Positions 3,453 through 17,256 of a stretch of DNA of 64,000 nt are shown one piece after another. How positions within the stretch are numbered: the stretch's first letter is position 1; every line of letters begins with the position of its first letter. This DNA comes from an uncultured Chloroflexia bacterium (GTDB taxonomy: Bacteria; Chloroflexota; Limnocylindria; Limnocylindrales; CSP1-4), in assembly GCA_963734535.1 (NCBI GenBank), contig CAVTHS010000003.1, forward strand, positions 320,001 to 384,000, written 5' to 3'. A model generated the notes under the pieces. It was not told where the DNA came from. It did not search any database and saw only the letters and a list, made by a program, of their open reading frames with translations. Both the position numbers and the translations under genes were made by a program.

Positions 3453-6218
3453 TCAGCGAGGCAGCGGCAGCTCGATCCGGATCTTCGCGTCGATCACGAC
3501 CGCACCCTGCTCCAGCACCATCAGCGGGCTGCAGTCCATCTCGACGATCTCGGGGTGCGCCTCCACCATCGCGCTGACGCGGAGGAGCGTCTCCTCGAGG
3601 GCGGCGACATCGGCGCGCGGCGCGCTCCGATAGCCGTCGAGCAGCGGGAACGTGGCGAGCGACCGGATCATCTCCCGCGCGTCCCGGTCGGTCAGCGGGG
3701 TGATGCGCACGGCGACGTCCCGCAGCAGCTCGACCTCGGCACCGCCTGCGCCGCACGCGATGACCGGTCCGAACAGCCGGTCGTGGACGACGCCGACGAG
3801 CATCTCCACGCCGCCGGCCACCATCTGCTGGACGAAGAAGCGCTCGACCGGGTGCCCGGCGGCGGCGAGCGTCGCCGCCATGCCGCGCGCAGCCTCCTCG
3901 ACCGCGGCAGCTCCCTCGAGGGAGAGCATCACGGCGCGTGCCTCGGCCTTGTGGACGATCCCGGTCGCGACGGCCTTCAGGGCGACCGGCCCGCCGATCT
4001 CGGCCGCCGCGCGCCCGGCATCCTCGGCCGTGTCCACGAGACGCCAGCTCGCCGTGGGGATCCCGTAGCACTCCAACAGGCGGGCGACCTCGTCCGGTCG
4101 CAGCCAGCGCGAACGGCCGTTCCCCGGGGTGCCTGCGATGGACGAGCCGGCCAGCGTCCCTCCCGCGCCGGGCTCGCCCGGGTCGATCTGCGCCAGGGCG
4201 GCGGCCAGCGCCGCTGCTGCCTGGTCCTCGCGGAGGTCGGCGAAGTGAGGGACGCTGCCGAGCGGCGCCGCCCGCCATTCGGCGTAGCGCACGGCGTGGG
4301 CGAGCGCCCGGGCCGCCTCCTCCGGGTAGCTGTACGCGGGCACCTTGACGGGGCCATCGCGAAGGGCGCGCGGCCCCCCTTCGGCCGACATGAACACGGT
4401 GAGCACGGGGACCGGCCGCGGAAGGTCCAGCACGGCGTCGCGGATCGCGGCCGCCACGTCCTCGGTCTTCGTGACCAGCGGGGGGACGAACAGGACGATG
4501 ATCGCGTCGATCCCCTCCCAGGCGGCGAGGACCTCGATGGCGCGGCGAAACGCGTCCGGTGTCCCTTCGATCGTGTCCACGGGATTGCCGAGGGCTGCCT
4601 CGGCGGGCAGGAACTCCGCGAGCGCAGCTCGGACCTCGGCGGGCAGCGCCGGCACGACCAGGCCGTCCGCGTCGCAGGCATCGGCGGCCAGGATCCCCGG
4701 GCCGCCGCCGTTCGTGAGGATCGCGACCCGCCGCCCGGCGGGAAGCGGCTGGTTCGCGAGCAGGGAGGCCACGTCGAAGAACTCGCCCAGCGTGTCGGTT
4801 CGAACGACGCCTGCCTGGTGGAAGAGGGCCTCGACGGTCACGTCCGACGCGCCGATCAGCGCCCCGGTGTGCGAGGACGTGGCCCGCGCCCCGGCGGCCG
4901 ACCGGCCGCTCTTGACGGCGATGATCGGTTTGCTGCGCCCGACCCGTCGCGCGATCCGGGCGAACTTGCGGGGGTTTCCCACCGACTCGAGGTAGAGGGC
5001 AAGGACCGCGCTGGCCGGGTCGTCCTCCCAGTACTGGAGGAAGTCGTTGCCCGAGAGGTCGGCCTTGTTGCCGATCGAGATGAAGCTGGAGAGGCCGAGC
5101 CCCAGGCGGTTGGCGTGCTCGATGATCGCCAGGCCGAGGGCGCCGCTCTGCGACAGGAAGCCGACCCGGCCGCCGATCGGCGCGGTCGGCGAGAACGTCG
5201 CGTTCATGCTCACCGACGGCGCGAGGTTGATGACGCCCATGCAGTTCGGCCCGACGAGGCGCATCCCCGCCTGGCGACAGACGGCGAGGAGCTCCCGTTG
5301 CCGGGCGATGCCCTCCCCGCCGATCTCCGCGAACCCGGGCGAGACGACGACGATCGTCTTGACGCCCTTGCCTGCGCAGCCGCGGGCGACGTCCACGGCC
5401 GAGGTCGCCGGGACCACGAGCACCGCGAGGTCCACGGGGCCGGGGATGTCGCCGATCGCGCGGTAGGCTGCCACCGACTGGACGACGTCGGCATTGGGGT
5501 TGACGGGATAGACCGGCCCGGTGAAGCCGCCGCTCAACAGGTTGTGGAAGAGCTCGCCGCCGATGGTCCCGCGGCGGCGCGACGCCCCCACCACGGCCAC
5601 CGAGGCGGGGTAGAGCAGGCCGTGAACCGCCGCGGCGGCCGCGATCTGCTCGCGGCGCTCGAAGCGCTCGCGTGCCGGGCCGGTGAGCGCGGTCGGGAAC
5701 TCCACGAGGACGGCCCCCGGCTCGGCTCGCAGGCGCGTCGGGAAGCCGCTCTCGTGGAAGACCCGGAGCATCCGGCCGTTCTCGGCCAGGACGTCGGCGG
5801 AGAACGTGGAGATGCCCGCCTCCTGCGCCCGCTCGGCGAGCTCCTCGAGCAGCAGCGTCGCGATGCCACGGCCCTGCAGCTCGTCGGCCACGATGAACGC
5901 GACTTCCGCCGAGTCCGGCCCGATCCGGTCGTAGCTGGCGTGGGCGATGATCCGGTCGGCGATCCCGGTCTCGGCAACCAGCGAGCAGCCTGCCGGGTCG
6001 GCAGGAGCTGCCCACCGGAGCGCCTGGGCCTCCAGGTCCGAGACAAGGCCGGCGAAGCGCATGCGGCGCGACTCGGGGGCAAGCCCGGTGAGGAAGGCCA
6101 CGAGCGCCGGCTCGTCCTCCGGGCGCGCCGGGCGAATGCGGATCGCCGACCCGTCCCGGAGGATGGTGTCGCGCGCGCGGTCCCGTGAAGTCGCGGTGCT
6201 CATGGCGTTGCCTGCCAT
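3453..6218 (-). CDS. Pat-type protein lysine acetyltransferase (N-terminal GNAT fused to NDP-forming acyl-CoA synthetase domains)
   Basis: LRDG..IRIRP and VADELQGRGIAT GNAT motifs; GPNCMG, SQSG, SHTGAL, ATP-grasp C-terminus; start 6218 or 6203. Confidence 0.9.
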   Translation of the reverse strand: MAGNAMSTATSRDRARDTILRDGSAIRIRPARPEDEPALVAFLTGLAPESRRMRFAGLVSDLEAQALRWAAPADPAGCSLVAETGIADRIIAHASYDRIGPDSAEVAFIVADELQGRGIATLLLEELAERAQEAGISTFSADVLAENGRMLRVFHESGFPTRLRAEPGAVLVEFPTALTGPARERFERREQIAAAAAVHGLLYPASVAVVGASRRRGTIGGELFHNLLSGGFTGPVYPVNPNADVVQSVAAYRAIGDIPGPVDLAVLVVPATSAVDVARGCAGKGVKTIVVVSPGFAEIGGEGIARQRELLAVCRQAGMRLVGPNCMGVINLAPSVSMNATFSPTAPIGGRVGFLSQSGALGLAIIEHANRLGLGLSSFISIGNKADLSGNDFLQYWEDDPASAVLALYLESVGNPRKFARIARRVGRSKPIIAVKSGRSAAGARATSSHTGALIGASDVTVEALFHQAGVVRTDTLGEFFDVASLLANQPLPAGRRVAILTNGGGPGILAADACDADGLVVPALPAEVRAALAEFLPAEAALGNPVDTIEGTPDAFRRAIEVLAAWEGIDAIIVLFVPPLVTKTEDVAAAIRDAVLDLPRPVPVLTVFMSAEGGPRALRDGPVKVPAYSYPEEAARALAHAVRYAEWRAAPLGSVPHFADLREDQAAAALAAALAQIDPGEPGAGGTLAGSSIAGTPGNGRSRWLRPDEVARLLECYGIPTASWRLVDTAEDAGRAAAEIGGPVALKAVATGIVHKAEARAVMLSLEGAAAVEEAARGMAATLAAAGHPVERFFVQQMVAGGVEMLVGVVHDRLFGPVIACGAGGAEVELLRDVAVRITPLTDRDAREMIRSLATFPLLDGYRSAPRADVAALEETLLRVSAMVEAHPEIVEMDCSPLMVLEQGAVVIDAKIRIELPLPR

Positions 6219-9683: not shown

Positions 9684-10010
9684 CCGGGGACGGCGCCGGT
9701 GGTCGCGGCCAGGCGTGACCACCTTGATGGGCCACCGGGATCGAGCCGCGTCCCGCTTGCTGGCCGTGCACCGGGTGAGCCCTCGGACCGCCGGGGCGTC
9801 CCGGAGCGCCTGACCTGCGTCACGACGTGTACCGCGCGACCGCTGGGCGGTCGTTCGGGTCACGCGGTGAGCAATTTCATCCTGATTGGGGTCCCCGCCG
9901 GTCGCAGGGGTCACTCGGTGCACGCGTCCTCTCGCCGCGCGCCGGCTCTTCAACTCAGCAGGCCCGGGCTCATCCCTGACAATTCCACTGGTGCTCGGCG
10001 TTGTCGGAAC

Positions 10011-10300
10011 CTACGGCGAGGCCACCGCGAACGCCCACGAGGTCCCCGGTGCGATAGCAGCCGACGCCGGGAACGTGATCTGCCCTTGAAGCCGTTCTCG
10101 TCGCCTGTGCCGGTCCACGGGACCCGCTTCAGGTCCTGAGGCGGGATCGCGGTGATGTTGGCCCCGGTCTTCTCGCAGCCCTGGACCGACCCACGCAACG
10201 TCAGCGACGCGGTGCCCTTGAAGCTCGTCTTGCCGGGTGCCGCCTGGGCGCCGACCAGGTCGCCCCGCACCTCGGTCGTGGTCGTGCACCCTCGCAGCTG
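10011..10300 (-). pseudogene. Gene fragment of a possible secreted protein, one frameshift
   Basis: Coding-like frame CTTTTEVRGDLVG...GDENGFKG continues after a frameshift near 10083 as QITFP...VASP*; no clear start. Confidence 0.3.
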
Positions 10301-10369
10301 TCGGGCATCGGCGATGGGTCGATGCCGAGTGCCCCCTGGCCCACGGCGGAGTGAATGGCGCTGGACCCT

Positions 10370-10882
10370 TCACTTTGCGGCCAGAGCCGTGCAGAGGTTG
10401 ACGACCTTTCCCTTGAACGAGTGCGTGACGGTGTTGAAGCCGGCGTCCAGCGTGTCGTGAGTGTGGCCAAGTGCCCACGACAACGACGGACCCGGCGAGT
10501 CCGTCGGGTACAGGTACCCGACGACGACGGTCCCGTCGATCCACACGTCGAGTGTCTTGTCCGCGTGGGTGACGAAGGTCTGGAGGGTTGGCCCTCCGAC
10601 GATCATCGAGGCGCCGGAGGTGATGTCCGTCACGGTCGACCATTGGGGTCCGTATGCGATGACCAGCAGGTCGCCGTTCCGCTGCACGGGAAACGTGAGG
10701 ACGTCCATCCTCGAGCCGTCCTCGACCCACCGGACTGGGAACGTGCACAGGACGCCCGCGTTGAACATGGAGTCGAAGGTCGTCCACCCTTTGGTGTGTG
10801 TCGGCCCGGCGGCGGCCGCGGGTGTGGCCAAGGTGACGACCAGCAGCAGCGCGCTGAGGCCAGCGGCGAGGAAGCGACGCAT
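10370..10882 (-). CDS. Secreted hypothetical protein
   Basis: Signal peptide MRRFLAAGLSALLLVVTLATPAAA; two Cys; GGGAGG SD. Confidence 0.8.
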   Translation of the reverse strand: MRRFLAAGLSALLLVVTLATPAAAAGPTHTKGWTTFDSMFNAGVLCTFPVRWVEDGSRMDVLTFPVQRNGDLLVIAYGPQWSTVTDITSGASMIVGGPTLQTFVTHADKTLDVWIDGTVVVGYLYPTDSPGPSLSWALGHTHDTLDAGFNTVTHSFKGKVVNLCTALAAK

Positions 10883-10904
10883 GGGGACCTCCCGGGACGC
10901 CGTT

Positions 10905-10979
10905 CACGGGTCGGTCTCGCCAGTGGCTCGGCGCGGTCCCGGCGGCCAGAATGTGGGCCGCGTGTCCAAGCCTCCCGCA
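10905..10979 (-). ncRNA. c-di-GMP-II-like riboswitch, copy 1
   Basis: GCGGG-A-GGCUU...CGCGG..UGGCCGCC..CCGCG..GAGCCACUGGCGAGACCGACCCGU; P1/P2/P3 plus pseudoknot; -10-like GATAAT just upstream. Confidence 0.75.
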
Positions 10980-11162
10980 GGCCTTCATTATCCCACCGAG
11001 GGGTAGTCACTCAGTGCACACGACCACCCCCCCCGGTCGCCCGGTGCGCCTCCCATCGTCCGGGCGGAGCGGAGCGCCCAGTGCGGAGCCGAGGGCCTGG
11101 GTCGTCGATGACCCATAGGCGTCTCGAGCGCCCGTCGGGCGGCTCCCGTGCTGGTCCGGCTG

Positions 11163-11785
11163 TCAACCGACGGCGACGGCCTCGTCTGCCCTCACGTCGT
11201 CCGCGGGCCGTACGGACATGGGCTTCACGGCCGCGACGATCGTCATCTCGTCAGTTCCCATCAGGAGCCGGCCCAGGAAGTTGTAGAGGCGGCTGTCGCC
11301 GAGGCGACCGTAGGAGTCGAGACATCATCGAACCCTGCTGCCTCCGTCATCCGCCGCACCTCGGCCTCGTTCCACACCCGGACCGTGCCGAGGACCTTGT
11401 GGGTCGCGGTCGCCTCGGCGACCGTCCGCCCGATCTGCATCGCGGCGCGCCCGCCGGGACGGAGTACCCGGCACATGTCGGACAGGACGCGTTCAGGATC
11501 GGCGAAGAGCGTGAAGGCGTCCATGGACGTGACAGCGCTGAAGCGAGCGTCCTCCCACGGGAGTGCCCCGGCGTCGTCCTCGACACCTCCGCTGTCCCCG
11601 CGGCGATGCGGTCGGCGAGGCGTCGTCGGGCCAGACCGACCTTGACCGCCGAGAGATCCACGCCCGCCACGTCTCGCACCCGCGAGGCGTGCTCGGCCAG
11701 GAAGGCTCCCTCCCCGCAGGCAACATCGAGCAACTCGTCCTCCGGCTGGGGGTCGAGCGTCGCGGCCATCCGCCGGTAGGGCGGG
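11163..11785 (-). pseudogene. Class I SAM methyltransferase, 5'-truncated with two frameshifts
   Basis: LDPQPEDELLDVACGEG...RRRLADRIAAGTA, shift near 11585 to LPWEDARFSAVT...VLRPGGR, shift near 11315 to YGRLGD...AVG*; paralog of the 13173 and 14203 genes. Confidence 0.7.
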
Positions 11786-11788
11786 CAA

Positions 11789-12346
11789 TCAGCCTCCGGA
11801 CGCGGGCGGCCCTCCACGATCAACGGCAACCGATGGATGTCGTTGCCAGAAGACCGCGACGAAGAGGTTGAGCGCGCCCATGAGCAGGCCGAGAGCGACC
11901 GCCGTGAGGTAGAGCGCCCGCTCCTGGTCCGGGAAGGGTCCGAGCACCACGAGCGCGAGGGCGAGGACGGCGAGCACGAAGGGCAGCCAGAAGGTGGGCC
12001 CCATCACCAGCGCTATCTTCGCCCGTGGGATGGTGGCAAGGTTGACAGCCAGCTCCGCCCGATTCTCGGGTGTCCGCGCGAACACGACGATCATGACCAC
12101 GAGGAGGGCGAGAGCCAGGAGGCTGCCCACGAGCCACAGCTCGTGGCCGGTGATGCCATAGCTGCTGATGATGACCGGCGCGAGGGCGGCGATAACCACC
12201 CAGATCGCGGTCGTCACCACCCAGCGGATGTCATTGACCTCGCTCACCTCGAGCGTTGCGCCGCTCCGCACGGCGATGAGCGCACCGAAGCCCACGAACA
12301 CGCCAGCGATCTCAGCAAGCGAAAGGAACAGACTGGTGTCCTGCAT
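11789..12346 (-). CDS. Multi-TM hypothetical membrane protein (paralog A)
   Basis: MQDTSLFLSLAEIAGVFVGFGALIAVRSG; about 5 TM segments. Confidence 0.8.
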   Translation of the reverse strand: MQDTSLFLSLAEIAGVFVGFGALIAVRSGATLEVSEVNDIRWVVTTAIWVVIAALAPVIISSYGITGHELWLVGSLLALALLVVMIVVFARTPENRAELAVNLATIPRAKIALVMGPTFWLPFVLAVLALALVVLGPFPDQERALYLTAVALGLLMGALNLFVAVFWQRHPSVAVDRGGPPASGG

Positions 12347-12505
12347 GTCCCGCCATCTCCCACGCGTGTCACGGCCTTCGTGAAGGAGGGGAGTCTGGGT
12401 CGCGCCTGCGCCCGCTGAACAGAGGCATCGGTCGTGAAGGAGCCCCCAGCCAGCGAAGGAGCCCCCAGCCAGCCGTCCCTGGGCTGGCCGGAGTCGCGAT
12501 GATCG

Positions 12506-13030
12506 TCAGGCGCTCGCGGGCCGTCGCTGCATGTAGACGAGCGAGAGAAGGGTCCACCCGGCCCCCAGCAGGATCAGCACGGTGTACGTGAAGTAGAGCG
12601 CCGCCTCGAGGTCCGGGGCCACGCCCAGCATGATGATGATCGGCGCGAGCACCATCACGAGCATGTAGAGGACATAGAACGCCCATCCGACCAGGTCGCC
12701 GGGCGTGAGCCTGGCCGCCGCGACGCTTGTCGCCCAGCCCGCCCTGTACTCGGGGGTCCGGGCGCTGACGGCGATCATGCCGAGCAAGCCGACGAGCGCG
12801 AGCGCGCTGCCGAGCGCCCAGACCTGGTGGTCGGTGAGGGCATAGCGGCCGAGGGCCACCGGGGCGAGGGCCGCGACGACCGTCAGCATCCCCAGCGCCA
12901 CCACGGTGCGCATGTACGCAACCTCCTCCACCTCGCTCGGGCCTCCGCTCCGCACGGCGATGAGTGCCCCGAAGCCGACGAACACGCCGGCGATCCCCGC
13001 GACCGAAAGGAACAGATCGGCGTCCTGCAT
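12506..13030 (-). CDS. Multi-TM hypothetical membrane protein (paralog B)
   Basis: MQDADLFLSVAGIAGVFVGFGALIAVRSG; AGGAGG SD. Confidence 0.8.
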   Translation of the reverse strand: MQDADLFLSVAGIAGVFVGFGALIAVRSGGPSEVEEVAYMRTVVALGMLTVVAALAPVALGRYALTDHQVWALGSALALVGLLGMIAVSARTPEYRAGWATSVAAARLTPGDLVGWAFYVLYMLVMVLAPIIIMLGVAPDLEAALYFTYTVLILLGAGWTLLSLVYMQRRPASA

Positions 13031-13172
13031 GTCCCGCTACCTCCTGCACTTCGTGATCGGGGTCAGGATCGGCCGCAGGGCCCGCTCCAGCTCCTGGGCT
13101 GTCAGCCGCGACCGAGCCATCGACGCGAATGCACTTCGGCTCCCACGATGAATGCCTGGCAGAGGCGCTGGT

Positions 13173-13976
13173 TCAGGCGGGCGCGGCGCTGCCCGTCAAC
13201 TCGCGCTGGCCGCCGACGCCAACGGCGGTGTTCCGCGGCGACGCGGCCGGCTTGCGGCAGCTCAGGACCAGCGCGGCCTCGTACAGCGGTTTGAGGCTCT
13301 CGTGGCGAACGGTGACGTCCGTGAACCCGGCGTCCTCGAACATCCGCAGGTAGTCGGCCTCGTCGCACCACCGGACCCCCCAGCTCACGGCCGGCTGCTT
13401 CGGCGACCGCCGTGGGTTGTAATCCACGAACACGAGGCGACCGCCCGGCCGCAGCACCCGGAATGCCTCGGCGTGCTTGATCGGCGCGTTGATCGCAGTC
13501 ACCGCGGAGAACCCGCCGTCCTCGAAGGGCAGCTCGGCGGCGCTGCCGGTGACCAGTTGGGCCGTCCCGGTGGCGATCCGGTCGGCGAGGCGCCGCTCGG
13601 CCGCCCGCAGCATGACCCGCGAGAGATCGAGGCCGACGACTCGGCGCACATGCTGCGCCTTCGCGCCCAAGAACGCCCCCGGCCCGCAGCCGATGTCCAG
13701 CAGCTCGTCCTCGGGCTGGAGGTCGAGCATCTCGGCGACGGTCTGGTACAGGCGAGCCTCGATCCACGGCATAACCTTGGCCATCACCCACCCCGTCGGC
13801 CCGTTACAGAAGAAAGCGCACTTCCCCCCGGGCGCGAACACCGTGAACATGGCGTCATCGTTGGGCGGCATGGCCTCCGATGCGCGCCCCCCGAGCCGGC
13901 CGCGGAGGATAGCGCCACCTGCCGCGGCGGCCGTGGCGCCGCCGGCGAGGAGAGCGAACGTGGTCCGTCTGCGCAT
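13173..13976 (-). CDS. Class I SAM-dependent methyltransferase with N-terminal hydrophobic anchor
   Basis: LLDIGCGPG, LPFEDGGFSAV, RVLRPGGR. Confidence 0.88.
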   Translation of the reverse strand: MRRRTTFALLAGGATAAAAGGAILRGRLGGRASEAMPPNDDAMFTVFAPGGKCAFFCNGPTGWVMAKVMPWIEARLYQTVAEMLDLQPEDELLDIGCGPGAFLGAKAQHVRRVVGLDLSRVMLRAAERRLADRIATGTAQLVTGSAAELPFEDGGFSAVTAINAPIKHAEAFRVLRPGGRLVFVDYNPRRSPKQPAVSWGVRWCDEADYLRMFEDAGFTDVTVRHESLKPLYEAALVLSCRKPAASPRNTAVGVGGQRELTGSAAPA

Positions 13977-14004
13977 GGCGCTATCCTCCCTGGGACGCCT
14001 GCGC

Positions 14005-14074
14005 GCGGGTCGGTGTCGCCAGTGGCTCGGCGCGGTCCCGCGGCCGGGGTGTGCCGCGTGTCAGAGCCTCCCGC
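14005..14074 (-). ncRNA. c-di-GMP-II-like riboswitch, copy 2
   Basis: GCGGGAGGCUCUGACACGCGG...GGCCGC..CCGCGCCGAGCCACUGGCGACACCGACCCGC; -10 TACAGT at 14084-14089. Confidence 0.7.
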
Positions 14075-14202
14075 CAGTCCGTGACTGTAGGCGTCGAGTT
14101 CGCGTCCGTCGAGGGCCGGTCGGCAGGGACCCGGCCCGGGAACCCCGGCGCCGCCGCGAGCGTCCTCCTCGGCTCCCCGGGGAACGCACGCCGGGCGCCG
14201 AC

Positions 14203-15006
14203 TCAGGCGGACGCGGCGCTGGCGGTCAGCTCCTGCTGGTCGCCGACGTCGATCGAACGGCTCGGCGGCGCCGCCGCCGGCCTTCGGCAGACGGCGATCC
14301 GGTTGTCGGCGAGGAACAGGACGGGCTTGTAGCGGACGGCCACGTCCACGAAGCCCACATCCTCGAGAACCCGCTGAGTATCGGCCTCGGTCCAGTTCCA
14401 GGGGGGACCGGCAGTCCGCTCGCTCGACGGCTTCCTCGGGTCGGGGATGAGCTCGTCCACGAACACGAACCGTCCTCCGGGACGCAGCACGCGGAAGACC
14501 TCGGCCATGTTCGCCGGCGCCGTGATGGCCGTGACCGCGGAGAACTCGCCGTCGTCGAAGGGCAACACGGCCGAGCTGGCGGGCACGAGCCGGGCCGTCC
14601 CGCCGGACAGCCGGTCCGCAAGCCGCCGCTCGGCCTCGCGCAGCATGGTCCGCGAAGGATCGAGGCCGACGACCCGGCGAACGTGGGGAGCCTTGGAGGC
14701 CAGGAACGCCCCGGACCCGCACCCGATGTCGAGCAGCTCGTCCTCGGGCTGCAGGTCGAGCATCTCGGCAACGACCTCGTACACGCCCGCGTGACCGATC
14801 GGCTGGAGCTTCCCGAACGCCCAACCGATCGGCCCGTTGAAGAAGAAGCCCTGGGGTCCACCGGGCGCCCACTGCGTGAACTGCAGGTCCTCCTCTGACG
14901 ACGGCGGCGTCTCTCGCCCCTGGATCCTTGAGCGGGCGACCGCTGCGGCCGTGACGACGGCCAGCGTCCCGCCGCCGATGACAGCAAGGGTGGTGACACG
15001 GCGCAT
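14203..15006 (-). CDS. Class I SAM-dependent methyltransferase with N-terminal hydrophobic anchor
   Basis: LLDIGCGSG, LPFDDGEFSAV, RVLRPGGR; start moved to ATG 15006 (GGGAGG SD, parallels the paralog). Confidence 0.88.
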   Translation of the reverse strand: MRRVTTLAVIGGGTLAVVTAAAVARSRIQGRETPPSSEEDLQFTQWAPGGPQGFFFNGPIGWAFGKLQPIGHAGVYEVVAEMLDLQPEDELLDIGCGSGAFLASKAPHVRRVVGLDPSRTMLREAERRLADRLSGGTARLVPASSAVLPFDDGEFSAVTAITAPANMAEVFRVLRPGGRFVFVDELIPDPRKPSSERTAGPPWNWTEADTQRVLEDVGFVDVAVRYKPVLFLADNRIAVCRRPAAAPPSRSIDVGDQQELTASAASA

Positions 15007-15035
15007 GGTGCGACCCCTCCCCAGGGACGCCTGCG

Positions 15036-15111
15036 CGCGGGTCGGTCTCGCCAGTGGCTCCGCGTGGTCAGTGGCGGCCGGGGTGGGGATCACGCATCAG
15101 AGCCTCCCGCG
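15036..15111 (-). ncRNA. c-di-GMP-II-like riboswitch, copy 3
   Basis: CGCGGGAGGCUCUGAUGCGUGAUC...GGCCGCC..GACCACGCGGAGCCACUGGCGAGACCGACCCGCG; kink-turn-like CUGAU/GGAG; compensatory P3 changes relative to copies 1 and 2. Confidence 0.8.
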
Positions 15112-15366
15112 TGGCTGTCAGGGTCGTGGTCCATACCACCGGCCGCAAGGGGCATTGGATGTGTAGTGCCCCGGTCGCCCGACCGTCGACTCGTCACCAG
15201 CAGGCGAGATCGTCCGGCCGGCGCGGAGCCGGGTGCGAGCAGGCGGTGCGGACTTGACCTTCGAGGAACCCGCACCCAAGCCGGGCTCAGCGGCGCCGGC
15301 TGGACTCCTCAAGTCAGCGGCATCCCTTCGCGGACGCTGGCCTTTGCGGCCCTCGGACTGCCAGCG

Positions 15367-16752
15367 TCACCGGAGGAAGGTCTTGAGCTGCTCCCACCAG
15401 GCGTAGAGGGCGGCGTAGTTGGAGTCATCGCGGGTCGCGAAGGCGAGGTAGCGTCCCTTGCCGAAGGTGAAGTAGATCCAGGGCCGCCCGTCGTACGGGT
15501 TCATGCAGGCGAGCTGCCCGCTTCCGCTCGGGCTGCTCCACAGCTGGTAGGCTCGCGCGTCGGTTACGCACGATCCGAAGGCGAGCTTGTGGAGGCCGGC
15601 CAGGAAGCCCAGATACTCATCGCCGGCGGTCGAATCTCTGGACGCGCCGGACAGGATCGGGGGGTCCGTGGAACTCGTGGGTTCCATGACGTACAGGCGG
15701 GTCGCGCCGGTCGCCGGGTGACACGTGACGCCGCCGCGTGAGCCGGTTGGTGTCACAGCGAGCAAGGTGTCAGGGCCGACCACCGGCATATGCTGGAGGA
15801 TGTACCCGGAGAAGCCCGCCAGGCTGGCATCATTCGGTGTCCCGCCGCGGACGCACGTGCGTGCAAGGTCGGGCGGCAGCGCGGCAAGGATCGCGGCCTC
15901 GGCCGCGTTGGGGAAGGGCCCGGGGCTCGCCGAGGCGGTGGGCGCGGCGGACGCCGAGGCCACGGCTGCCAGTGAGCCACCCGCGGACGCCCCGGGCGAT
16001 GCCGACGGGCCTGCCGGGCTCCCCGCCACGGAAGGGCCGGGCGTCGGGGTCGCGGCCCGGCCTCCACCGAGGAGGACGACCCCGACCGCAGCGACCACGA
16101 TAAAGGCGGCGAGCCCGAGGCCCGCGGCGATGAGACCGGACGGACGGCGCCCAGCCGGAGACGCAGCTGGAGCGCCGGCACCGGCGGTCCCCCGGGCCAC
16201 GACCCGGTAGCAGGCGACCGGCTCGGGGACGCCCTTGAGGCGGCGCAGGCCGAGGGGCTGGAACTCGACCTCGATCTGCGTTCGGGTCAGGCTGCGGACG
16301 GTCTCGGATACGACGAGCTCGCCGGACTTCGCCTCGGCACAGAGGCGGGCTGCGATGTTGACCGCCGAGCCGACGAAGCCTTCGGCGGTCTCGACGGTCT
16401 CCCCGGCGTGCACCCCCACGCCCACGTGGATCGGGTCGGGGTCGCCTGCCGTCACAACGGCTGCCGCGATGATCGCGAGGCCGCAGCCAACCGCGGCGCT
16501 CACCGAGTCGAAGACCACGTAGAAGGAGTCGCCCTCGGTCCGGATCTCGGCCCCCGCAGCGGCCGCCACGACCTCGCGGACGAGGGCGCGGTAGCGGGCA
16601 AGGAGGGCCGCCCCGGCGCGGTCCCCGTGGGCCTCGACGTAGCCCGTGTAGTCGCGCAGGTCAGCGAACAGGAAGCCGCGGGTCAGGTGGGGCGCATCGA
16701 CACCCGGCGCCGCGACCGGCAGTGGATACGCCGCAGGACCCGGTTCGGCCAT
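15367..16752 (-). CDS. Class III nucleotide cyclase domain protein with TM helix and Cys-containing extracytoplasmic domain
   Basis: FLFADLRDYT, EGDSF, VHAGE, GSAVNIAARL motifs; TM, P/S/A-rich linker. Confidence 0.85.
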   Translation of the reverse strand: MAEPGPAAYPLPVAAPGVDAPHLTRGFLFADLRDYTGYVEAHGDRAGAALLARYRALVREVVAAAAGAEIRTEGDSFYVVFDSVSAAVGCGLAIIAAAVVTAGDPDPIHVGVGVHAGETVETAEGFVGSAVNIAARLCAEAKSGELVVSETVRSLTRTQIEVEFQPLGLRRLKGVPEPVACYRVVARGTAGAGAPAASPAGRRPSGLIAAGLGLAAFIVVAAVGVVLLGGGRAATPTPGPSVAGSPAGPSASPGASAGGSLAAVASASAAPTASASPGPFPNAAEAAILAALPPDLARTCVRGGTPNDASLAGFSGYILQHMPVVGPDTLLAVTPTGSRGGVTCHPATGATRLYVMEPTSSTDPPILSGASRDSTAGDEYLGFLAGLHKLAFGSCVTDARAYQLWSSPSGSGQLACMNPYDGRPWIYFTFGKGRYLAFATRDDSNYAALYAWWEQLKTFLR

Positions 16753-16899
16753 GGGGAGCGACCTCCGCCCGAAGGTTCCGGCTGGCGGGACACAGCCGCC
16801 AGAGGCGTTCGTCACCAATTCGAGCCTGCGGCCCCCGGGCGTCCGGAGTCAGTCGCTGACTTGATCCCAGCACGGCGGTCGCACCATCGAGGGCGCCCC

Positions 16900-17179: not shown

Positions 17180-17256
17180 GGGCGGTTAGCTCAGTTGGTT
17201 AGAGCGCATGCTTGACATGCATGAGGTCAGAGGTTCAAGTCCTCTACCGCCCACCA
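17180..17256 (+). tRNA. tRNA-Val(GAC)
   Basis: GGGCGGT/ACCGCCC acceptor stem, CATGC-TTGACAT-GCATG anticodon arm, GGTTCAAGTCC T-arm, encoded CCA. Confidence 0.97.

Follow-up and report, generated by a model that had tools for sequence, protein, structure and literature searches.

Three leader aptamers of the c-di-GMP-II-GAG family at a methyltransferase locus in Limnocylindrales

To which RNA family do three short elements repeated along a cluster of methyltransferase and membrane-protein genes belong, and what would they control? The question is raised by a stretch of 64,000 nucleotides (hereafter the window) from an uncultured Chloroflexia bacterium of the order Limnocylindrales (GenBank assembly GCA_963734535.1, contig CAVTHS010000003.1, positions 320,001 to 384,000 of the forward strand). 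An earlier reading of its letters, which we call the original prediction, described three minus-strand elements at 15036-15111, 14005-14074, and 10905-10979 and likened them to class II cyclic di-GMP (c-di-GMP-II) riboswitches of a variant type. We conclude, with a probability of roughly 0.8, that these elements act in cis as 5'-leader aptamers, that they are members of the catalogued c-di-GMP-II-GAG family (RF03169), and that they control the initiation of translation. They belong to an already catalogued family and hence do not represent a new RNA class.

The whole window was scanned with cmscan and Rfam 15 at the gathering thresholds, the cut-off for RF03169 being 40 bits. Four matches were obtained in total, namely one tRNA and three RF03169 elements, whose edges lie within 5-6 nt of those originally given and whose E-values against the whole of Rfam (Table 1) place them far beyond chance. 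After removal of overlapping matches of clan CL00127, RF03169 won for all three copies. The canonical c-di-GMP-II model (RF01786) gave 41.2 bits for copy 3 and 38.1 bits for copy 1, below its cut-off of 53.5, and did not list copy 2, while the sister model c-di-GMP-II-GCG (RF03170) gave 61.4 bits for copy 1 and 61.3 bits for copy 3 and was outscored by RF03169 on all three copies. The covariance models thereby bear out the variant assignment for each copy. The shared helices P1 and P2, the pseudoknot between the loop and the 3' strand, and the 3' sequence GAGCCACUGGCGA[G/C]ACCGACC are present in all copies as described. The signature 3' strand of RF03169, UGGCGAGACCGACC in the upper-case consensus of the model, is exact in copies 1 and 3, and copy 2 has GAC for GAG. 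All three elements stand on the same strand as, and in the 5' leader of, a gene, with the ATG 22, 28, and 29 nt past the originally given ends of copies 1, 2, and 3 and with GGGAGG, GGGAGG, and GGGGAGGGG, respectively, as the Shine-Dalgarno sequence (SD).

We collected related aptamers from loci fetched by riboswitch matches and by methyltransferase homology, in which nhmmer gave 135 hits (114 distinct), and aligned 93 of them with MAFFT (mean column identity, 80%) as the basis of the structure counts. The scored structure consisted of eight pairs in P1, 3 + 2 in P2, eight in P3, 3 + 4 in the pseudoknot, and a candidate C49-G79 pair. Standard pairs filled 87.0% of 2690 cells, compared with 28.8-38.4% when the partners were slid by one to three columns, and the two pseudoknot helices were paired at 95.7% and 97.8%. 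Double changes occurred in 16 pairs versus 7.0 +/- 1.4 in shuffles, and none of 500 shuffles reached the observed value, a control that overstates the support because the aptamers are very alike and related by descent. All helices form in copies 1 and 3, and copy 2 is short of two pairs in P3 and one in the pseudoknot. Covariation of P3 among the window copies, as originally claimed, held for pair 30-61, which changes from C-G to U-A in copy 3 in one true double change, but not for pair 33-59, which is an A.C mismatch. The family fold is that of the class II c-di-GMP riboswitch (P1, P2, P3, and a pseudoknot of loop and 3' tail) with an altered pocket region, GGCG-AGA-CCG in the window copies replacing GUGC-AA-CC.

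Control at the initiation of translation is most likely because the aptamers lie 22-29 nt ahead of the start codon and no terminator stands between. A scan of 10000-15400 gave no terminator-like site between aptamer and ATG for any copy; the sole such site in this interval, against a chance expectation of 1.5 +/- 1.2, falls within the coding sequence of the first methyltransferase, MT1. The aptamer-to-ATG distance is mainly 16-30 nt in related leaders. The absence of a terminator and an action at the level of translation, both proposed originally, fit these observations.

The -10-like hexamers that had been noticed upstream of copies 1 and 2 also stood up, since their offset is common to related aptamers: TAnnnT begins 15 or 14 nt ahead of the G of GCGGG in 33 of 92 aptamers, at 16 nt once, and at any other offset once. 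A sigma-70 consensus scan of 10000-15400 returned no promoter, and it is this positional count by which the hexamers are recognized. With a positioned hexamer each, copies 1 and 2 at least look like separate transcription units that start a few nucleotides before P1. Upstream of about one-third of the relatives' aptamers lies a conserved element that ends in ...CCGGGGGCCGTTCGCCTCTCGCCAGA, approximately 25 nt before the -10 hexamer. This element lies some 25-110 nt upstream of the aptamer in L042, L016, L007, L009, L050, and other loci, often accompanied by another GCACCGGGCG repeat farther out, and nhmmer found it 84 times in the loci (56 within 80 nt upstream of an aptamer) and not in the source genome. 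It may represent a -35 or operator region, or else belong to a cassette that is being duplicated.

On the minus strand, the locus reads aptamer 3, MT1, aptamer 2, MT2, M1, M2, a methyltransferase remnant, aptamer 1, and a gene for a 170-aa protein (Table 1). The genes directly downstream of the aptamers are, as originally described, two paralogous methyltransferases and an unrelated protein of secreted type, judged by Pfam matches and by the signal-peptide-like N-terminus of the 170-aa product. MT1 and MT2 each have a hydrophobic N-terminal segment after MRR. They matched generic models only (Methyltransf_11/25 and UbiE-like) and no specific NCBIfam equivalog at the cut-off; their best solved relative is a phosphatidylethanolamine N-methyltransferase, a distant one (9.4e-09). 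For the 170-aa protein and M1, searches of Pfam, NCBIfam, and Atlas gave only "hypothetical". M1 is possibly co-transcribed with MT2. The remnant, just after M2, is a third such methyltransferase gene that has lost its N-terminal 63 residues and carries a frameshift near 11584. The interval between M1 and M2 holds, at about 12436-12475, two tandem copies of a 19-nt unit resembling GCTGGCTGGGGGCTCCTTC, and one contig of public run X2 lacks 19 nt at 12436, which suggests a length polymorphism. The tRNA gene (17180-17253, plus strand, 73.7 bits) is some 2 kb away from the cluster.

Table 1. Positions of the aptamers, leader features, and genes in the window
Feature	Position	Strand	Details
Aptamer copy 3	15031-15116	minus	RF03169 c-di-GMP-II-GAG, 76.1 bits, E 1.6e-13, model 1-86
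Leader of copy 3	15007-15030	minus	GCGUCCC motif, SD GGGGAGGGG, ATG at 15006
MT1, 267-aa class I S-adenosylmethionine (SAM) methyltransferase with N-terminal hydrophobic anchor	14203-15006	minus	Pfam Methyltransf_25 6.4e-15, Methyltransf_11 3.4e-14
-10-like hexamer TACAGT, copy 2	14084-14089	minus	from sequence; at the conserved offset
Aptamer copy 2	13999-14080	minus	RF03169, 45.3 bits, E 1.2e-05, full model span; outlier, probably impaired
Leader of copy 2	13977-13998	minus	GCGUCCC, SD GGGAGG, ATG at 13976
MT2, 267-aa class I SAM methyltransferase, paralogue of MT1	13173-13976	minus	Pfam Methyltransf_25 2.5e-16; 55% identical to MT1
M1, 174-aa multi-pass membrane protein	12506-13030	minus	no Pfam/NCBIfam match; Atlas hypothetical-protein clusters only
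M2, 185-aa paralogue of M1, multi-pass membrane	11789-12346	minus	47-49% identical to M1
Methyltransferase remnant (pseudogene)	11315-11817	minus	tblastn: residues 64-141 in one frame, 142-224 in another
-10-like hexamer GATAAT, copy 1	10987-10992	minus	from sequence; one base off the conserved offset
Aptamer copy 1	10900-10984	minus	RF03169, 72.7 bits, E 1.2e-12, full model span
Leader of copy 1	10883-10899	minus	GGCGUCCC abutting SD GGGAGG, ATG at 10882
170-aa protein with signal-peptide-like N-terminus MRRFLAAGLSALLLVVTLATPAAAA	10370-10882	minus	no Pfam/NCBIfam match

How far does this family extend beyond the window? In a search of 151 genomes, in which the best 27 candidates at most were scored per genome, RF03169 matched in 86, including the source genome (G000; 3.2 Mb in 14 contigs, 89.9% complete). 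Matches were found in 40 of 41 other genomes of the genus, in 77 of 90 of the family, and in eight of nine from another family of the class; the same search gave none in the 42 genomes of a small-genome sister family. A fuller search of three genomes at E <= 1e-5 returned 45, 19, and 23 matches, numbers that place the source genome at the low copy end for the genus. Of the 45 matches in one of the three, a 3.2-Mb genome (G021), 44 pass the cut-off, and the remaining one is its canonical c-di-GMP-II site. The fold of about 85 nt is kept before many unrelated gene families in 42 of the 61 genera sampled, and an orthologous counterpart of aptamer copy 1, with the same leader, was found in L015. 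We propose that the locus is a minor component of a regulon that spans the lineage and comprises genes for exported and membrane-anchored proteins and for methyltransferases.

The source genome itself holds further sites. A fourth RF03169 match, at C14:279173-279258 (L004:1501-1586, minus strand), was reassigned by cmscan to RF01786 with 61.4 bits. Canonical c-di-GMP-II sites above the cut-off occur in 29 of 41 genomes of the genus, the strongest (at least 59 bits) once per genome. Two sub-threshold copies, C3:286069-286152 (L005; 38.3 bits, with the 3' strand of P1 broken) and C7:266433-266523 (L006; 34.7 bits), and a partial copy at about 58846-58888 of C5, seen as a 3'-half match in a motif search and by nhmmer, look like decayed elements. 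In assembled contigs of four public runs (three DNA or unclassified runs of soil type and one RNA-library run), many contigs pile up on the aptamer core, 10792-10955, and diverge at its edges, which fits a highly repeated element in those communities; the RNA-library run covers a small share of the stretch with contigs only and cannot show transcription, starts, or ends.

To survey the targets, we took one downstream open reading frame (ORF) per aptamer from the riboswitch-fetched loci and the window and scanned 73 of 99 with Pfam. Eighteen ORFs from loci fetched by methyltransferase homology were left aside to avoid bias, as were eight doubtful ones with low third-position GC, no SD, or a long gap (L015:1698, L044:12460, L010, L049:1311, L049:2301, L035, L022, and L038:5474). 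Among the 25 families with the most members, Methyltransf_11/25 was the commonest with seven of the 73, followed by Polyketide_cyc2 (SRPBCC) with six, Abhydrolase_1 with three, and RCC1_2 with two; many others were single. The remark that methyltransferases are not typical targets therefore stands for the parent c-di-GMP-II class and fails for the GAG variant. When the 24 loci with the closest methyltransferase homologues were inspected, an aptamer was directly upstream in eight, within 1.2 kb on the same strand in seven (leading an intervening gene in six of them), and absent in nine. The sites before the homologues were assigned by cmscan to GCG in L058, L063, and L075 and to GAG in L071 and L067; in L077 a GCG-type site lies elsewhere in the locus (3986-4070), and a weak aptamer-like hit adjoins the homologue. 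From these assignments, the methyltransferase is a recurrent predicted target of GAG and GCG aptamers alike. Among named records, the nearest loci of this methyltransferase belong to metagenome-assembled genomes labelled Chloroflexia, Chloroflexota, or Ca. Limnocylindrales, which makes a Chloroflexota host probable. The N-terminus MRR is found in 32 of the 99 downstream proteins. MT1, MT2, and the enzymes of L048, L037, L060, and L012 share an N-terminal MRRxTTLALVAGG...-like segment and cluster by BLAST, and the segment is shared by methyltransferases and by proteins of about 340 aa, some of which match alpha/beta-hydrolase, as if a copied cassette reached into the coding region.

What might the aptamers sense? 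The GAG and GCG variant classes were reportedly set apart by Weinberg et al. (PNAS, 2017) because their pocket bases are unlike those of c-di-GMP binders. The bases between the pseudoknot segments, which contact the ligand in the parent c-di-GMP-II class, differ in the window copies. Judged by homology, the probable ligand is a cyclic dinucleotide that contains guanine, or some related compound. The main texts of the literature searched, including PMC5737381, PMC10043782, PMC5473149, PMC9481103, PMC12747935, and PMC12564702, report no ligand for either variant. The passage of PMC9943018 that names c-di-GMP-II-GAG lists it as a model, and the name also occurs in PMC11539752.

The GAG variant may simply be another c-di-GMP sensor with altered affinity, in which case the genes would form an ordinary c-di-GMP regulon with no new ligand. 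This explanation draws on the fold and most of the conserved nucleotides, which are common to c-di-GMP-II (the same clan, with 38-41 bits to RF01786), on the many signalling domains of the source genome (19 GGDEF matches, some of them split domains, nine EAL, and one DAC), and on the exported and membrane proteins among the targets, which are usual for c-di-GMP control. However, the bases between the pseudoknot segments differ, with AGA opposite an extra loop C where the parent has AA; the separate canonical c-di-GMP-II aptamer kept in the source genome, and above the cut-off in most genomes of the genus, suggests that the two types are not interchangeable; and neither GGDEF nor EAL appears for any of the 73 downstream genes within the 25 families listed. 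We regard a plain c-di-GMP sensor as possible but rather unlikely. Our own proposal goes further and is offered tentatively, at odds somewhat longer still: in these uncultured soil bacteria, the GAG and GCG variants would sense a nucleotide-type signal other than c-di-GMP, and this signal would govern as many as about 44 transcription units in a 3-Mb genome, with membrane-tethered SAM methyltransferases as the most frequent enzymatic output and copy 2 as a further-diverged sensor. If true, it would point to signal-controlled methylation at the membrane or envelope. The second-messenger regulon of the original prediction is an inference. Directly upstream of aptamer 3, on the minus strand (15367-16818), lies an ORF of 483 aa whose product carries a class III adenylate/guanylate cyclase domain (PF00211, 39.8 bits). 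We considered this gene as a clue to the ligand and rejected it, since no such gene is near the aptamers in any other locus compared and the genome has six such domains; the adjacency is probably coincidental.

Whether ligand binding would turn translation on or off was approached by partition-function folding (RNAfold) of 79 aptamer-plus-leader RNAs, the bound state being represented by enforced P1-P3 with the pseudoknot bases blocked. In the ensembles, the SD paired chiefly with the CCGACCC tail of the aptamer (columns 85-87 and 81-82). The mean probability of an unpaired SD was 0.44 without constraints versus 0.55 with aptamer and pseudoknot enforced, and the openness of the SD rose by more than 0.2 in 24 leaders and fell in two. 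Pairing of the ribosome-binding site (RBS) with the tail was stronger in riboswitch genes than in 2382 control genes of the source genome (-14.64 versus -12.82 kcal/mol; Mann-Whitney p 5.5e-05, a value that overstates the case because the leaders are related by duplication), and the reversed tail gave no such gain (-11.45 versus -12.61 kcal/mol). These folding and pairing results lead us to favour, weakly, an ON switch. In the ligand-free state, the conserved 3' tail ACCGACCCG, which comprises the pseudoknot strand and the 3' strand of P1, would pair with the GGGAGG region of the SD; in the ligand-bound state, P1 and the pseudoknot would hold the tail and free the SD. The shift in favour of this direction is small, and both SD strength and relatedness confound it.

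The opposite logic starts from a second leader feature. The original prediction had pointed to a conserved GCGUCCC before the SD, and the motif is indeed enriched: among 84 related leaders whose gap does not exceed 45 nt, 35 have G[CT]GTCC immediately before the SD, and a stricter selection gives 32 of 79 riboswitch leaders versus 35 of the 2382 control genes, a crude control set. It is this enrichment that makes the motif a candidate part of the expression platform of an OFF switch, in which GCGUCCC would pair with the aptamer 5' GGGAGGC in the ligand-free state and leave the SD open, whereas ligand would let P1 and P2 form and GCGUCCC help to mask the SD and the start codon. In the constrained "bound" minimum-free-energy structure of copy 3, the motif does pair with the 3' half of the SD region, and several leaders show, in a reading by eye, complementarity between the 5' part of the motif and the bases just before the ATG. 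Nevertheless, the pairing of GCGUCCC with GGGAGGC, which the original prediction had suggested, fared poorly: it contains an internal G.G mismatch, shows no covariation, and was picked by neither RNAalifold nor ensemble folding. Moreover, the motif is missing from more than half of the leaders and in most directly adjoins the SD, so that no loop would fit between them, and the SD is more often opened than closed when the aptamer is formed. We hence consider an OFF switch doubtful and give neither direction a smaller chance still. As candidate partners of the motif we also examined the 3' strand of P3 (GGGACCGC), the SD, and the bases before the ATG; like the aptamer 5' strand, all are near-invariant and give no covariation signal. 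A conserved leader hairpin is not claimed, since RNAalifold on 31 motif-bearing leaders returned only a 3-bp helix with no double changes.

Copy 2 departs from its siblings in ways that call for their own explanation. The original prediction had noted GAC instead of GAG near its predicted pocket, and the difference is real: the triplet between the pseudoknot segments is AGA in 81 of the 93 aptamers, GGA in seven, AAC in two, GAC in one, AAA in one, and ACA in copy 2 only. Copy 2 is also the sole row with gaps in the 5' strand of P3 (2 nt) and in the CGCC of the pseudoknot loop (1 nt). With three lineage-specific lesions, it appears somewhat likelier than not to be a weakened or decaying copy. 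A functional sub-variant, in which the G-to-C change in the pocket and the shortened P3 would confer a different ligand or set-point, is in our estimate unlikely. Its score does exceed the Rfam cut-off, its gene, SD, and -10 hexamer are all intact, and the same GAC change precedes a membrane methyltransferase-like gene in another genus (L102). However, a pattern search of 101 genomes of the family found GAC at three sites (in the source genome and two others) and GAA at one, in unrelated contexts: L102 stands ahead of an ICMT-like membrane protein and L103 lacks the 5' half of the aptamer. Full-length aptamers with AGA or GGA precede the MT2-like orthologues of L065, L066, and L071, the lost P3 and pseudoknot pairs resemble decay, and the C of copy 2 cannot pair with loop C49. 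Of the 93 rows, 87 allow a standard pair at the candidate position C49-G79 (76 C-G, 10 U-G, and one U-A), and the other six, including copy 2, leave it unpaired. GAC as a recurrent, conserved sub-class was rejected on the same search, given the unrelated or degenerate contexts. One contig of public run X1 covers copy 2 without a gap but lends no independent support, as X1 is possibly the sample from which the genome came.

That the elements are duplicated leader or promoter DNA, or a binding site for a protein or small RNA, and sense no small molecule is very improbable: whole cassettes (-10 hexamer, aptamer, leader, and even the MRR... N-terminus) do recur as duplication would give, and no validated ligand of the family was met in the literature searched, but the fold is kept before many unrelated gene families across genera, is homologous to a structurally solved class of ligand-binding aptamers, and keeps its pairing in 87% of cells, with some changes that compensate each other, a few of them in the pseudoknot.

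Several observations weigh against our reading of the elements as ligand-held leader aptamers with an ON direction and a failing copy 2. High conservation leaves the covariation modest, so that the support comes mostly from conserved pairing. At the offset common to the others, a clear -10 hexamer is missing from copy 3. Within the window, the accessibility of the SD rises in copy 3 only (0.48 to 0.73), copy 1 going from 0.53 to 0.50 and copy 2 staying at 0.67. The complementarity of tail and SD may only mirror stronger SDs, GGGAGG being the SD core in 18 of 79 leaders compared with 2.3% of control genes. The ON model does not account for the enriched GCGUCCC, and RNAalifold gives no conserved leader hairpin in which it might act. 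Copy 2 passes the Rfam cut-off ahead of an intact gene and may still work. Finally, the literature searched, so far as its main texts go, reports neither a ligand nor switching for the RF03169 family.

Taken by itself, the window calls for an ordinary annotation: three leaders of a known family, one of them probably decaying. RF03169 is nevertheless an orphan class, with a known fold and no validated ligand in the literature searched, and this lineage, which has dozens of copies in a genome and an enzyme target that keeps recurring, may help to de-orphan it. Class I methyltransferases with an anchor follow both GAG and GCG aptamers, as do SRPBCC proteins and hydrolases, in genomes that also keep a separate canonical c-di-GMP-II aptamer. 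What the present analysis adds is the lineage-wide scale, the link of both variants to the methyltransferase, the positioned -10 element, the enriched GCGUCCC motif, and the diagnosis of copy 2 as an outlier.

The elements can finally be set beside the known members of their clan. With canonical c-di-GMP-II (RF01786) they share the overall fold and the GAGCC...ACCGACC frame, in keeping with the cross-hits given above. They differ in the pocket region, where the window copies have GGCG-AGA-CC with the loop GG-C-CGCC and the parent aptamer in L004 has GUGC-AA-CC with the loop GG-GCAC; the pocket strand is GUGCAACC with GGGCAC in L004 and GGCGAGACC with GGCCGCC in the window, which places the window copies outside RF01786. 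The sister variant RF03170 stands directly before homologues of the same methyltransferase in L058, L063, and L075. Its members here read GGCG[G/A]ACCCGG, their leaders lack GCGUCCC, and the true GCG-type sites of relatives read GGCGGACCCGG, unlike the window copies. A search of the genus with RF03170 did not separate the variants, because the model cross-hits GAG sites. For RF03169, the likeness is closest: copies 1 and 3 match at full length above the gathering score with the same P1, P2, P3, and pseudoknot, the same signature GAGCCACUGGCGAGACCGACC, and the same 5' untranslated placement before genes for exported or membrane proteins. These two copies show no essential difference from the family, and copy 2 differs in its GAC, a P3 shorter by 2 nt, and a pseudoknot loop shorter by 1 nt. 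What sets the present representatives apart is the host, a Chloroflexota lineage with very high copy numbers and with methyltransferases as the leading target.

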